A DNA stretch of 64,000 nt from Octopus vulgaris (GCA_951406725.2 OX597827.1:74400001-74464000), one strand, 5' to 3'. Positions 4,587 through 63,999 are shown, counted from the first letter of the stretch. A program made the numbers and translations. Notes: generated by a model not told the origin, from the letters alone.

Positions 4587-4676
4587 AATTAGCTGAAGAT
4601 TACTCAGCATCTTAAATCTGCTGTAATATTTACAGCTTTTAATAAAATGTTGTAGTATGAAACAATTGTACTAAAT
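4587..4676 (+). ncRNA. Type I hammerhead ribozyme motif (Penelope pLTR type)
   Basis: ttag-CTGAAGA (4593-4599)-long stem II (tact/agta, cagcat/atgttg)-GAAA-caattg palindromic stem III-TA-ctaa. Confidence 0.7.
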
Positions 4677-5582
4677 TACCGGATCCATTCTTGTTGCTTA
4701 TTTTTTTATTATATATATATATATATATATGTGTGTGTGTGTGTGTGTGTGTGTGTGTGTGTGTGTGTGTGTGTGTTTGTGTATGTATGTATGTATTTGC
4801 ATACATCCACTGATATAGAAATATGTATGCAGGTATGTTTTGCGAGCATCAATGAATGTGTATGCGTATTTATATGCACAAACATATTCGAAGCTAAGGG
4901 GCTTCTTCCTGACATATGAAAATTATAATTTATCTTGCTGCTGTCAGCCTTCTTCCATTTTATTCTTGTATTTCTCTCTGTCCCTTTGGCTAACTCCAAA
5001 GTCTTTTCTGTCTTTTCTTGTGTTCTTTGTCGCTCCTCAGTTCTTCTGCTCGTTAATTGACATGGGACTTTGATGTTTCCGTATTGTAAATTCTGCTTGC
5101 TTTCTCTGTATTTAGAAGTCAAGAAGGCTCCATGGAAATGAAAACTGTTTTGTATCTGTGATATTTGCAGTTAACTTGTGTGTATTTGAAAAATTAGACA
5201 TTTGCTTTTCTCTCAATTAAAGTTATCTCATGCATGTATCTGAGCATATCGAAATTGTCTAATTGAGATACGTTTATTTTTTGTCTCTCGTCATCTATCC
5301 TAGAAGAGCGCATGCTCGAAACATTGAAAACTCCTTTCAATTTGTTTGCTTTTTTATCTCGTCTTCTTGTCCCATAGATATATATATATATATAAGGGTG
5401 GTATGTAGAAAAAATAAGCACATTCTAAGATGTAAAGCAGTATATATTAAAAGTGGAGAAAGCTGGTTTACAGGATTACCATGGGTTCCCTTCCATTAAG
5501 GGTATAGCTTTATGACGTATCTTCAGATCCCAAAACATGTTGACCTAAGACCTCTTCTAAATATGGAGGGGGGAAAGCCGCG

Positions 5583-6200
5583 TTACCAAGGTAAACAGTA
5601 GGGGATTACCTCTCTTTGCCATTGGATATTTATTTCTGGCTGTGCCGCCATCTTGTGGGCTCGAAACAACAGCAGGAATTTCCTAAAATGTAAAGATGGC
5701 CTGAAAATCTCCGTTCTATAGTTAAGGATGTTCCCTGCTTCGAGCGAGTCTTTTAGGATTCTCGCGAAAGTACCGAAGCGCAAGAGGAGCGTGACGTCTA
5801 AGAAGTCCGTTGCTGTGAGGTTGGCTGCTATGGTGAACTTCAAACCCATGGTGGCAAACGTGCTGATTAAGTCTTTCCTAAGCCTATCTAGTGTATGCCC
5901 GCTTGCTCCCCAATAGATAGCCAAGGCGTCGTTTCTGCAGAGGACAAAGAGGAAAGAGGGGAACTTATTCCCAAGGGTATCCTCGATATACAACCCAATG
6001 AGGTCGCATACTTCAGCGCTGTTGTTGGTTCCCATCGCTACGTCAAAGAGCCCGTGGGGTCGGATTGCTAGACCCATGCCGAACCTTTGTTGAACATCAC
6101 TGTTCTTCTGGTATGCATAATAATTTCTACATCGCTGTCTCTAATACTCGTGAAACCCCTAGCGAAAGAAAACGCCTTGGTCAGAAGCCCTAAGTCAGCA
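5583..6200 (-). mobile_element. Penelope-like element RT fragment
   Basis: FDVAMGTNNSAEVCDLIGLYI, LCRNDAL (degenerate YRDDGL) and DFLDVTL motifs; similar to the element at 33889-35390. Confidence 0.85.
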
Positions 6201-7142
6201 GGTATTGGGTTTGACGATACGCCCCAAAGCTAAACCCTTTATGGACGGAAACACAGGATTTTTACGCTACTGGCATATAGAAACTTGTTTGACGTTGGCA
6301 AAAGTGTATTGATTCTGGTGTTTATTTCAATTAATAAAGTTTTATTTGAGCCGAGATATGTCCATCTGAATTTAAAAGTTAAAAACCGCAAGAACTTTCT
6401 TGATAACCTAATATTTCTATAGATTTACGTTGATACGATTAGAGAAAATATTACAAAACAATTTAGATATAGCTGAAGGTCCCTGACGGAAGATGTGAGC
6501 ACTGGACACTTGCCTGTCATGGAGTAAGGACACAAGTTTTCACTGTTTTATCCTTTAAACAACCGGAAAAGCAGTGCACATAAGCCTTCAGCGAGATCTC
6601 GTTACTGAAGGGACACGGAAGAAGGAAAGCATCTTCAAACTGATTGTCTGGTCAAAACACCTTTAAGAGTGGACACGGCTTATGAAATTCAAGTTGCCGT
6701 ATGGAGTTTTAAAGCCATGTTTTGTGTTAAATTAAGCAACGAAGTAGGCCGTAGCAGGATTTGAACTCCAAAAAAAGATAGAACCGGAACAGTCAACGCA
6801 ACATCCGGACTCTACGTTCATAAAATTCGGCTGGAGTATCGCATAGGATTGGTACTTTCATTATGAACTCCATAGAGAGAGATGCAAACAGGATATGTTA
6901 ATATAAGCGAGCTATAGAGTAAATTTGGGAGGCCTTTTAATGTGTGCGGTGGAGAGGAGATTGTATGTGCGTGTGCGGATGTGTATGTGACTGTTTGAGT
7001 GTATGTATTTGAATGTGTGTGCTTGAAGGAAATGTTAACCATTTTCCATACTTTCTCGAGGTAAGCAAATAGGAATAAACAGTTGTATCTAAGGACAAAA
7101 GTCGTGTTAACTGTATGTTTGCATGTATATATATATATATAT

Positions 7143-7683
7143 ACCACTCGCCTTTACCAGTATAAGCATTCCTTCTATAGATATAATAATTTTCTTTAAT
7201 TGATTTATGTTTTAAAATTTTTTATGCAGCTTTAAAAAAACTTAGGTCTTGCTCAAGAACACAACACGCAGCCCGGTCCGGGATTCGAGCTCACAACCTC
7301 ACGCTTGACGCTCTAAACACTGAGTCATGCGCCTTCACTATAAATACGGATATATATATATATGTGTGTGTGTATATATATATATATATATATATATATA
7401 TATATATATATATAATCAATTTTATATATATATATATATATATATATAACACACACACACACATATATATATATATCCGTATTTATAGTGAAGGCGCATG
7501 ACTCAGTGTTTAGAGCGTCAAGCGTGAGGTTGTGAGCTCGAATCCCGGACCGGGCTGCGTGTTGTGTTCTTGAGCAAGACCTAAGTTTTTTTAAAGCTGC
7601 ATAAAAAATTTTAAAACATAAATCAATTAAAGAAAATTATTATATCTATAGAAGGAATGCTTATACTGGTAAAGGCGAGTGGT
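7143..7683. repeat. Near-perfect inverted duplication, ~230 bp non-microsatellite arms around an (AT)n/(CA)n centre
   Basis: 7143-7372 is the reverse complement of ~7450-7683; includes a SINE head. Confidence 0.9.
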
Positions 7684-7900
7684 TCGATACCAGGCAGCAT
7701 GTTGTGTCCTTAGGCAAGACACTTTATTCTTCATGTTGCTCCAGTCAACTCATCTGGTATAAATGGGTAGTTCTTGTGTTTCAAAGGGCCTGTCTTGTAA
7801 CATTCTATTTATCGCTGAATCTCCTGCGCGTTAATTTCACGAGCAGGCTGTTCCGTTGAGCGGATGGACTGGAACATTCGCCGTCGTTTACCGACGGATT
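7670..7900 (+). mobile_element. Degenerate tRNA-derived SINE sharing its 3' tail with the SINE at 16915-17307
   Basis: gttgtgtccttaggcaagacactt core and ttaatttcacgagcaggctgttccgttga tail. Confidence 0.6.
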
Positions 7901-7980
7901 TTAGTTTCTAAATCTACACCGACAGGCACACAATTACTGATAGATCTTTAAAAGTAAATAAGAAAACGACGAGCAAACCC

Positions 7981-62193: not shown

Positions 62194-62245
62194 CCTCTTT
62201 TAAAGCAAAGTTCAATTCATGTATGTTCACTTGATTAATCACATC
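62194..62245 (-). CDS. Receptor-type PTP short exon at the start of D2 (52 nt; DVINQVNIHELNFALKE)
   Basis: tttcaag acceptor, gtaagt donor, phase 0-1 bridging the 150-nt and 41-nt exons in frame. Confidence 0.65.
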
Positions 62246-62452
62246 CTTGAAATTATATAGAAAATGGATGTCTAGTTTAAACAATACAAATATTAGATCC
62301 ATACATTCACGGGAAATTAATTATATTTATGAAATATAAACTATATAAGATTATGATGAAACAGGGTATTAAGGCATATCGATGGTTGATTTTTCTATTG
62401 ATTTCAATAAGAATTGATCACGTCTTCAGTCGCAATTACATTTCCGGCTTAC

Positions 62453-62602
62453 CTGAAACTGATGCTCCAAAATTGATACTCTTGATGAATTATCAGTTTC
62501 CTTTATTCTAGAGAATTCTTCTGGAATGTTACTGACATCGATGTCGTAATCTCCGGTGAGAATGTTCTCGACTAAAACATCATATATAAACTCCAACTGT
62601 AT
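62453..62602 (-). CDS. Receptor-type PTP D1/D2 linker exon (150 nt; IQLEFIYDVLVENILTGDYDIDVSNIPEEFSRIKETDNSSRVSILEHQFQ); gene continues beyond the window
   Basis: ttttcttag acceptor, gtaagc donor, phase 0-0; aligns with EQYxFIxDaiLEa.lcGdT.I....F.........l..eFq of tandem-domain RPTPs. Confidence 0.9.
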
Positions 62603-63719
62603 CTAAGAAAAAGAAAAAGAGACGGATCAGTTTAAAATTGCACGAACACTGTTGTCAGTAAACAATGGATTTTGATATAGATATCATTCATTATGTTTCG
62701 TAGTCACAAATTTGGTAAAGAGAAGAGAACTCCTTTGTTTCATGCAAATATTCTTTTGAAGGATGAAGTGATTAGGTGAGATCAATACAATTATTAGTTT
62801 GAACTGATATAAATCGTATTTAGACGTTACAAATTGAGGTTTGAATGAGAATGTAAGAAACGGTGTGGATTTGACGTTTTCCAACAATATATGTATCTGA
62901 AGATAGAGAAGGTCTTAAAAGTATTAAATAATGCCAGTATTTATATACTACATAACGCGAATATCTTGTTAGAATACCGTGTTACTGTAGTATTTGCTCT
63001 GAAAGGTCATTCCATGCAGACACACGGTGCTAAAAGCACAGACATATCGTTAGTAATCGTGATCTAGTAGCATGTGTGGCGGGTCCTTTTTCAGCAGCAG
63101 GCGCATGGCCATTACATGCCAGTCAATACATCAACGTTTGATATTAATACTGCTTCTGATTTAATGGTTTCTTTTTTCAAGTGTCAGCCGGCTAACTGAA
63201 ATCTTAGTGACTTAGCAGTTACTATTTTTCGACATATATTGTTGGTAATGAGATTTGGCTGGTACACACTAAGCAGATCTCCTACTACTGAAATTATGTG
63301 ATCTAGAATTTCCACGACTTATTCTTATCCATTGTCCTCTGCTAGCATTTCCACTACTTATCCTTGTCAATTGCGCTGTGCTTTTAGCTCTGTACATATA
63401 TTACAGGCTCTCTCTGAAGGTGAATATCGCAGTAATGCGTTGTTCTAACAATACATCCTCCTTATTTAGAATATAAAGATTATCATTCGGTATAAATACT
63501 GCTTCCGTGGCTAGAAGTTATTTATTAACACACACGCGCGCTCTTATTCTCTAGAGAGGATTATATGCAAAACAACAACCTTCAACAAACACTCAGTGTT
63601 CATGCATGACTTAATATAAAAACTAAAGTTGAAATATTTTACCGAGGCGCAATGTCTTTCCAATCCCATGGTCACCAGGCACATAATTTGTTGAGGAATT
63701 TAGTAGAATTCAAAAACAT

Positions 63720-63870
63720 GTGTAAGTAGCTTGCTTACCAACTACATAGTGTCGGTTTCAGTCCCACTGCGTTGCATCTTCGGCAAGTGTCTTTTACTAT
63801 ACCTTCGTACCCAATGCCTTGTGAGTGGATTTGGTAGATGGAAACTTAAAGAACTGTCATATATGTGTGT
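63720..63870 (+). mobile_element. SINE family A, 5' half
   Basis: gtaagtagcttgcttaccaac...gtgagtggatttggtagatggaaac. Confidence 0.75.
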
Positions 63871-63953
63871 GTGTGTGTGTGTGTGTGTGTGTGTGTGTGT
63901 GTGTGCGCGCGCGTGTGTGTACGAATGAGAACCCAGGTTCGAAATTTCACCAA

Positions 63954-63999
63954 GACACCTGATGAATGTTGCAGGGTATATCAGCCGAAACGTTGCGTT
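63954..63999 (+). ncRNA. Minimal hammerhead motif (family of 42899-42944), stem II eroded
   Basis: gacac-CTGATGA-a-tgttg...cagcc-GAAA-cg-TT-gcgtt. Confidence 0.6.

Follow-up and report, generated by a model that had tools for sequence, protein, structure and literature searches.

Ten hammerhead ribozyme motifs, and remnants of two more, had been read from a 64,000-nt stretch of the Octopus vulgaris genome (GCA_951406725.2 OX597827.1:74400001-74464000; the whole stretch analysed is called the window, and the genome comprises 2.8 Gb in 227 contigs). The question raised by this locus is whether these motifs are hammerheads at all, and what carries them. The ten main sites lie at 4587(+), 8302(-), 11143(+), 33203(-), 35552(+), 36861(-), 42899(-), 50551(-), 53182(-) and 63954(+), and the addition of 5295 and 31903 brings the number of sites to twelve. 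With a probability of roughly 0.75, the named sites are mostly decayed copies of several repeat families whose 3' parts hold a type-I hammerhead or a mutated descendant of one. One of them would be a Penelope-like element of the Hydra clade, and the rest short non-coding elements likely copied by such elements.

Repeat families carrying the motifs

Eleven of the twelve sites were copies of repeats, belonging to six dispersed families (A to F) and to one repeat limited to its own locus (site 53182). Between the two supposed remnants, 31903 was a fragment of family A (subfamily A2), but 5295 matched no family by BLAST. Copy numbers from searches of the octopus genome itself are first-look candidates. 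They amounted to 2,116 for family A (8302, with the diverged relatives 33203 and 31903; 94-97% identity), 2,898 for family B (42899 and 63954; 88-94% identity), 2,222 for family C (50551), 286 for family D (36861 and the decayed 11143; 74-80% identity), 2,783 for family E (35552) and 1,537 for family F (4587; 95-98% identity). Exact-word counts, which covered the whole genome, were 232 for C (26-mer), 3,480 for E (32-mer) and 5,669 for A (30-mer), and zero for the reversed words used as controls.

Copies were scored with two descriptors and one covariance model. The strict descriptor required a type-I hammerhead with the core word CUGANGA, helices flush with the core, and lengths of at least 4 for helix I and at least 3 for helix II; the relaxed descriptor also accepted C in position 4 and a single additional base following A9. 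The covariance model, R1, was built on 15 of 29 distinct hammerhead motifs from metagenome Hydra-type elements, contained no window sequence, and was run with filters off. Among distinct sampled copies, the strict descriptor passed 24/29 in family C and 4/37 in family D. Family B passed in 16/27 copies with one extra A, family A in 27/30 only when both C at position 4 and an extra A were allowed, and family E in 0/30 under any descriptor. On the family loci, R1 matched C in 20/23 and F in 10/11 at E < 0.001 (11/11 at E < 0.05), and matched none in A (0/29), B (0/26), E (0/25) or, at E < 0.01, D (0/24). Bases were inserted beside the core in families A, B and E, a place where known hammerhead alignments allow insertions of one or two nucleotides at most (Eckert et al. 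2023).

Two copies in the window gave significant R1 matches (E about 1e-4), at 4585-4678(+) with 25.1 bits and at 50548-50635(-) with 24.6 bits and an E of about 1.4e-4. The match at 4585-4678 is the type-I hammerhead of family F, with a predicted cut after 4670; its helix II begins with a U-U mismatch, because of which it fails the strict descriptor. It belongs to a non-coding element of about 265 nt at 4466-4730(+), which ends in a (TA)n/(TG)n microsatellite and whose extent was obtained by BLAST against 11 other loci. The match at 50548-50635 is the canonical type-I hammerhead of family C, the sole strict-descriptor pass in the window, with a predicted cut between 50556 and 50555. Its element (50515-50694(-)) is a deletion variant with the left unique part fused directly to one arm. 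A full family C insertion has this unique left part followed by a long inverted repeat, a hammerhead in each arm and (TA)n on both sides; a coding parent was not found, the longest copies (about 390-480 nt) having no open reading frame (ORF). Only these two copies, 4585-4678 and 50548-50635, are predicted to be able to cut in the window.

Hammerhead signal in the window

The motif words were present where they had been named. CUGANGA occurred at eight of the ten main sites (4587, 11143, 33203, 36861, 42899, 50551, 53182 and 63954) and CCGANGA at the other two (8302 and 35552), while a downstream GAAA, the U-H and a short or palindromic helix III were found at all ten, with stem II varying among families. 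The small, palindromic helix III is like that of published Penelope-like hammerheads (HHR table, supplement of PMC8557442). The original count of about a dozen hammerheads was not supported, only one or two of the ten copies passing a structural or covariance-model test. The strict descriptor passed one main site (core at 50627(-)) and the relaxed descriptor two (8332(-) and 50627(-)). In the comparison with dinucleotide-shuffled sequence, which had been proposed as a check, shuffles yielded a mean of 0.08 strict passes, with at least one pass in 8/100, and a mean of 0.12 relaxed passes, with two reached in 1/200.

Sites 36861, 33203 and 11143 had R1 matches that were not significant (E 2.3-7.8), and 8302, 35552, 42899, 53182 and 63954 had no R1 match at E ≤ 10. 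Rfam at gathering thresholds returned no hammerhead match on the whole window; at E ≤ 10 the hammerhead family was absent among the 150 matches listed of 191, and with lax filters at E ≤ 10 it was absent from all 12 site stretches of about 230 nt (0/12). RF00163 scored above its cut-off in 8/73 candidates from other repeats of this genome. The best Rfam Hammerhead_1 matches of the genome belong to other families without copies in the window. One of these is a compact 42-nt canonical minimal hammerhead with many near-identical copies, and a second form is 103-109 nt long with a long helix II. A weak descriptor match at 47546(+), with 3 bp in helix I and 2 bp in helix II, was in none of the examined families and was at chance level (equal count in 5/100 shuffles).

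When the six families were compared by BLAST with 410 kb of flanking sequence retrieved for other families, 22 matches resulted, or about 4 per 64 kb, compared with 9 BLAST-detectable copies in the window. R1 gave 6 extra matches at E < 0.05 in 443 kb, or about 0.9 per 64 kb, compared with 2 in the window. At about twofold over this small and biased sample, the window is not an outlier.

Family E, a Penelope-like element of the Hydra clade

The site at 35552 follows a Penelope-like ORF, as had been noted, and that ORF is of the Hydra clade. The reference of family E is an uninterrupted 717-aa ORF from another locus of the genome, in an element that ends in (TA)n. Its protein carries RWK, DKT, a CxCX5C linker and CxxC..E..N..CxH; RWK, DKT, the CxCX5C linker and an endonuclease with CxxC/CxH around E and N are features of the Hydra clade, which is called highly divergent (PMC8557442). 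By these protein motifs, family E is assigned to the Penelope-like elements of the Hydra clade. By eye, its protein resembles the printed Hydra-1_Obim protein. Homologue searches returned unnamed proteins only. Neighbours in a protein atlas have RVT_1 and HTH_animal, as a lead only, and Pfam on the E ORFs and on five homologues gave nothing useful.

In the window copy, the ORF (33901-35384(+)) matches residues 179-433, 469-672 and 663-716 of the 717-aa ORF. Residues 179-433 and 469-672 of that frame are covered by the pieces at 33850-35254, so that the window copy is 5'-truncated, frameshifted and prematurely stopped. Its 3' untranslated region has a hammerhead-derived motif at 35543-35620(+), in which core position 4 is C and a single U is bulged ahead of GAAA; the homologous cut would be after 35605, and the copy ends near 35635 at a microsatellite. 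The same core, CCGANGA with a bulged U before GAAA, was found in 39/41 copies of the family, and no canonical core appeared when the motif was read in other strand orders.

A search with the endonuclease of E returned 24,269 first-look candidates. Scoring covered 150 copies, each of them at least 95% identical at the protein level and 8 of them in the 717-aa open frame, so that family E is young. The first 100 places listed for the E word included 8 same-strand steps, 7 of them of about 2.58 kb. The claim that only 35552 keeps its ORF was right about the attached ORF but missed older Hydra-like fragments in the window, found by tblastn with the 717-aa protein. One lies at 5781-6187(-), with a further piece at 4358-4462(-) (40-47% identity), and another, a reverse transcriptase (RT) fragment, at 29448-30213(+) (30-44% identity to residues 198-484). 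An isolated 22-residue piece at 28764-28829(+) was 86% identical to the E endonuclease.

Hammerhead homology, covariation and pairing

The comparison drew on 78 metagenome loci that encode relatives of the E protein (39-48% identity). After exclusion of 13 loci whose match extended to the end of the contig, and of 2 whose flanks were short, 63 remained with a 3' flank of at least 130 nt. Hammerheads were found 79-530 nt past the relatives' ORFs, as strict type I in 22/63 and with 10.1/11.1 unpaired in 13/63. The helix III sequence of E recurs in several of these relatives. The 10.1/11.1 position was unpaired or U-U beside the core in 13/35 of the relatives' hammerheads, helix II being otherwise varied, and the same holds for family F.

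In family D, 86.4% of cells paired, compared with 20-41% when the partners were slid, and 11/22 pairs had changed on both sides, a covariation score reached by 2/500 shuffles. In the Hydra relatives (alignment A4), 97.7% of cells paired and 0/500 shuffles reached the score, the rows having been preselected by a pairing descriptor. Cofolding of two family C copies gave an intermolecular helix III and -51.6 kcal/mol, compared with -44.2 kcal/mol for two monomers; the corresponding values for family E were -48.2 and -37.2 kcal/mol.

The 5' ends of family C arms bunched at the hammerhead start, with 9/32 at -77 to -66 relative to the cut site. Another 9/32 reached the reference limit at -165. Assembled contigs from four of 24 runs, placed on 50511-50760, were fragmented repeat contigs that showed neither molecule ends nor circle-closing joints, which speaks neither for nor against cutting.

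Insertion footprint and arrangement

Close pairs among the first 100 listed places were head-to-head with the family C word (11/11 in the order (-,+)) and with the family E word (24 (-,+) and 0 (+,-)). An inverted twin lay within 14/26 family B loci, and family F had several (-,+) inverted pairs. Penelope-like elements are described as leaving inverted twins truncated at the 5' end, as forming partial tandems and as targeting (TA)n (Craig et al. 2021, PMC8557442). As judged from their arrangement in the genome sequence, the head-to-head twins of families B, C, E and F are the Penelope-like insertion footprint.

The sites other than 35552 had been described as solo non-coding modules beside microsatellites. 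They are indeed short, non-coding and flanked by microsatellites, but B, C and F often form inverted twins. The label retrozyme-like was not supported: none of the sites is part of a tandem array, 98 of the first 100 places listed for family A have a solo copy, and the twins are inverted, not direct. Tandem Repeats Finder returned 39 rows on the window, which is AT-rich (GC 32-45%); these were microsatellites and short-period arrays, and none had a unit of a few hundred bp.

Further copies in the window

The family A copy is an element of about 225 nt at 8195-8420(-), similar to short interspersed nuclear elements (SINEs) and with (TA)n on both sides. Its hammerhead-like motif, at about 8300-8336(-), has CCGANGA and an extra A after A9. 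Subfamily A2 is represented by a fragment at 31810-31918(-) (site 31903; BLAST identity of 79% to A2 positions 84-191) and by a copy at 33110-33300(-) (site 33203), with CUGANGA plus an extra A, an imperfect helix II, 73% identity to family A over 179 nt and an R1 E of 5.7. Site 53182 is an old A-like element with a degenerate motif at 53090-53290(-), found only in five local segmental copies; by eye, its motif region looks like family A. Its head-to-head inverted twin at 53340-53520(+) (87% identity over 159 nt) had been overlooked in the earlier inventory of sites.

Family B has a tRNA B-box-like word upstream. Its copy at 42850-42982(-) (site 42899) has CUGANGA with an extra A and a broken helix II, and the copy at 63920-64000(+) (site 63954), cut by the window end, is 90% identical to family B positions 2-82. 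Family D is old: its copy at 36760-36960(-) (site 36861) is decayed (R1 E 2.3), and the motif at 11140-11210(+), which aligns with the family, is decayed kin of it (R1 9.2 bits, E 7.8). This last motif abuts an RT fragment at 11092-11577(-) that resembles long interspersed nuclear elements (LINEs). LINE-type RVT_1 fragments, at 11092-11577(-) and 51231-51800(-), adjoin hammerhead-bearing elements and are apparently unrelated to them.

Other features of the window

The window regions searched recur 3-5 times on their own contig at 99-100% identity, with copies around 73.5-74.76 Mb, so that the window lies inside a large recent segmental duplication. A duplicate in the window's own orientation is located about 303.86 kb upstream, and others are inverted. 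A Helitron remnant occupies 1724-4489(-), with a run of ORFs that have PIF1 helicase, Pif1 2B and Helitron_like_N domains. A long near-perfect inverted repeat with an (AT)n core lies at 7277-7549; its outer arms resemble a tRNA T-arm, and it scored 134 bits against a plant microRNA model, under that model's cut-off. It is probably two inverted SINE-like ends and no microRNA.

Proposed mechanism and rival explanations

In the preferred reading, a Penelope-like reverse transcriptase/GIY-YIG endonuclease would nick microsatellites of the (TA)n type and copy its own RNA, and in trans the RNA of short ORF-less elements, from the 3' end. The product would often be an inverted twin that is truncated at its 5' end. 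Through its tiny palindromic helix III, an intact hammerhead would pair with another copy, either a tandem neighbour or a separate molecule. Cleavage would then follow position 17 and trim transcripts that are multimeric or read-through.

Several results weigh against this account. Taken alone, the strict-descriptor surplus in a single window is weak. Pfam returned no family on the 717-aa ORF of E at E ≤ 1, and GIY-YIG on the window fragment was sub-threshold (E 0.026; 15.2 compared with 22.6 bits). C at position 4 occurred in 0/35 hammerheads of the E relatives. The covariation of alignment A4 is inflated and circular, because its rows were chosen by a descriptor that requires pairing. Family C arms that start at the predicted cut site numbered 0/32 (30 loci), the nearest start being 19 nt upstream, and the genome is thus without a footprint of cutting. 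The families with the most exact words have non-canonical cores (27/30 in A, 39/41 in E); since A and E are abundant despite altered cores, an intact ribozyme seems unnecessary for spread. Family A is, moreover, almost always solo and full-length (26/30 loci, in addition to the listed places above), and the (TA)n flanks are the single trait that suggests its dependence on Penelope-like elements.

Some of these results also feed the possibility, at less than even odds, that the hammerheads are inherited relics of an ancestral Penelope-like tail, dispensable, and neither cutting nor mattering for copying here. The cores of the flourishing families A and E (5,669 and 3,480 exact words) have C in position 4 plus one added base, E is young (150/150 scored copies at least 95% identical, 8 in the 717-aa frame), and zero family C arms begin at the cut site. 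Naiads, too, have multiplied with no canonical hammerhead, and the hammerhead may be a mere parasite of Penelope-like elements (Craig et al., PMC8557442). Other observations speak against relics: near-perfect hammerheads are kept in 24/29 sampled copies of C and 10/11 of F, young copies though these are, family D pairs have changed on both sides, and 35/63 distant relatives retain, in the corresponding position, a hammerhead whose helices differ in sequence.

Family A and its relatives (8302, 33203, 31903 and 53182) might also be ordinary SINEs copied by LINEs, with a hammerhead-like word that is coincidental or vestigial. The full-length, solo copies of about 225 nt at 94-97% identity, the LINE reverse-transcriptase fragments in the window and the absence of R1 matches at family A loci (0/29) fit such an origin, which is nevertheless unlikely: (TA)n flanks family A on both sides and is not a single 3' tail, the two A-like elements within 53090-53520 are head-to-head twins, and the family A motif has all hammerhead parts in order, with a helix II of 4 bp and a palindromic helix III identical to that of family B. 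It is very improbable that the matches are altogether chance short words in AT-rich, microsatellite-rich DNA. One strict match did arise in 8/100 shuffles, the looser descriptor also selected 47546(+), outside the examined families, and 5295 was tied to no family. Chance would have to produce, however, two independent R1 matches at E about 1e-4 and motifs that are fixed features of multi-thousand-copy families, at the position of the hammerhead in Hydra-type elements. It is largely refuted for 4587 and 50551, and is still a possible source of 5295 and 47546.

Comparison with known elements

Minimal type-I hammerheads of Penelope-like pseudo-long terminal repeats were reportedly described by Cervera and de la Pena in 2014, as PMC7229834 and PMC8557442 relate. 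The hammerheads of the window share with them the type-I form, the very short or palindromic helix III, the place near the 3' end and a cleavage thought to be dimeric. They differ in that the window copies belong mostly to short elements with no ORF and are mostly mutated. The hammerhead-bearing SINE-like repeats of schistosomes are, like the elements here, short dispersed non-coding retroelements with a type-I hammerhead. The upstream B-box-like word of family B is a further similarity, whereas its Penelope-type inverted twins are a difference. Hammerheads of schistosomes are mentioned in PMC7229834.

An octopus family of the Hydra clade, Hydra-1_Obim, has been published with 2,507 bp, (TA)n and a hammerhead (supplement of PMC8557442). 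Family E resembles it in a unit of less than 3 kb (about 2.58 kb by tandem spacing, compared with 2,507 bp), and resembles the clade in (TA)n insertion and in a type-I hammerhead with a helix III loop of 1-2 nt about 100-300 nt past the ORF. By eye, its protein is identical to that of Hydra-1_Obim only in part, and E is a separate family. In the published table the core is CUGANGA (PMC8557442); that of E carries C in position 4 and also a bulged U. Family E has 3,480 exact-word copies, whereas PMC8557442 gives a small number of families outside Cnidaria and no large Hydra copy numbers.

Large hammerhead populations are known from other animals, among them a coral in which 16 families account for over 6,000 motifs (Cervera and de la Pena 2020, PMC7229834) and the axolotl with up to 120,000 retrozyme copies (PMC7229834; Li et al. 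2026, 10.64898/2026.07.22.740005), and a Penelope-like origin has been proposed for animal retrozymes (Li et al. 2026 preprint, 10.64898/2026.07.22.740005). Like metazoan non-LTR retrozymes, the ORF-less elements are non-autonomous, AT-rich, a few hundred nt long, equipped with a type-I hammerhead, divided into several families, very abundant and of proposed Penelope-like dependence. Those retrozymes form tandem repeats of about 150-450 bp with canonical hammerheads and circular RNA, whereas the window elements are dispersed, solo or in inverted twins.

The large ribozyme-linked retroelement population that had been proposed is real by copy numbers, but most copies are core-variant or decayed, and they are dispersed, not tandem. 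That annotation misses it is true in part, one octopus Hydra family with a hammerhead having already been published (PMC8557442). An octopus repeat annotation lists 11.6% SINEs, mostly unclassified, and the words hammerhead and ribozyme are absent from it (PMC13282606); a literature search for cephalopod hammerheads yielded PMC8557442 and a twister paper only. Multi-family populations of minimal type-I hammerheads in invertebrates and an octopus Hydra element with a hammerhead are thus already in print. The window is an ordinary instance of a known thing, with new family members, and is modest as a discovery; the core-variant E element is the one point that stands out in it.

Implications

A wider proposal is tentative and rather unlikely as a whole. 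It would have an altered-core Penelope-like element of the Hydra clade amplified to thousands of near-identical copies and driving, with its kin, the dispersed, microsatellite-targeted ORF-less families A to F, roughly 10^4-10^5 copies together, as a solo form of animal retrozymes. On that view, the altered core (C4 with a bulged U) would either represent a new, active hammerhead variant or prove the ribozyme dispensable for Penelope-like retrotransposition. If this were true, the ORF-less families could form much of the unclassified SINEs in the repeat annotation of such genomes.

For annotation, caution is advisable with short SINE-like repeats beside (TA)n, which may depend on Penelope-like elements. 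The findings also bear on the unsettled role of hammerheads in these elements. One genome holds young families with intact hammerheads (C and F) beside equally or more successful families with altered cores (A and E), with an insertion style that is apparently common to them. Families C and F, set against A and E, form a natural comparison set on the need for self-cleavage in copying.

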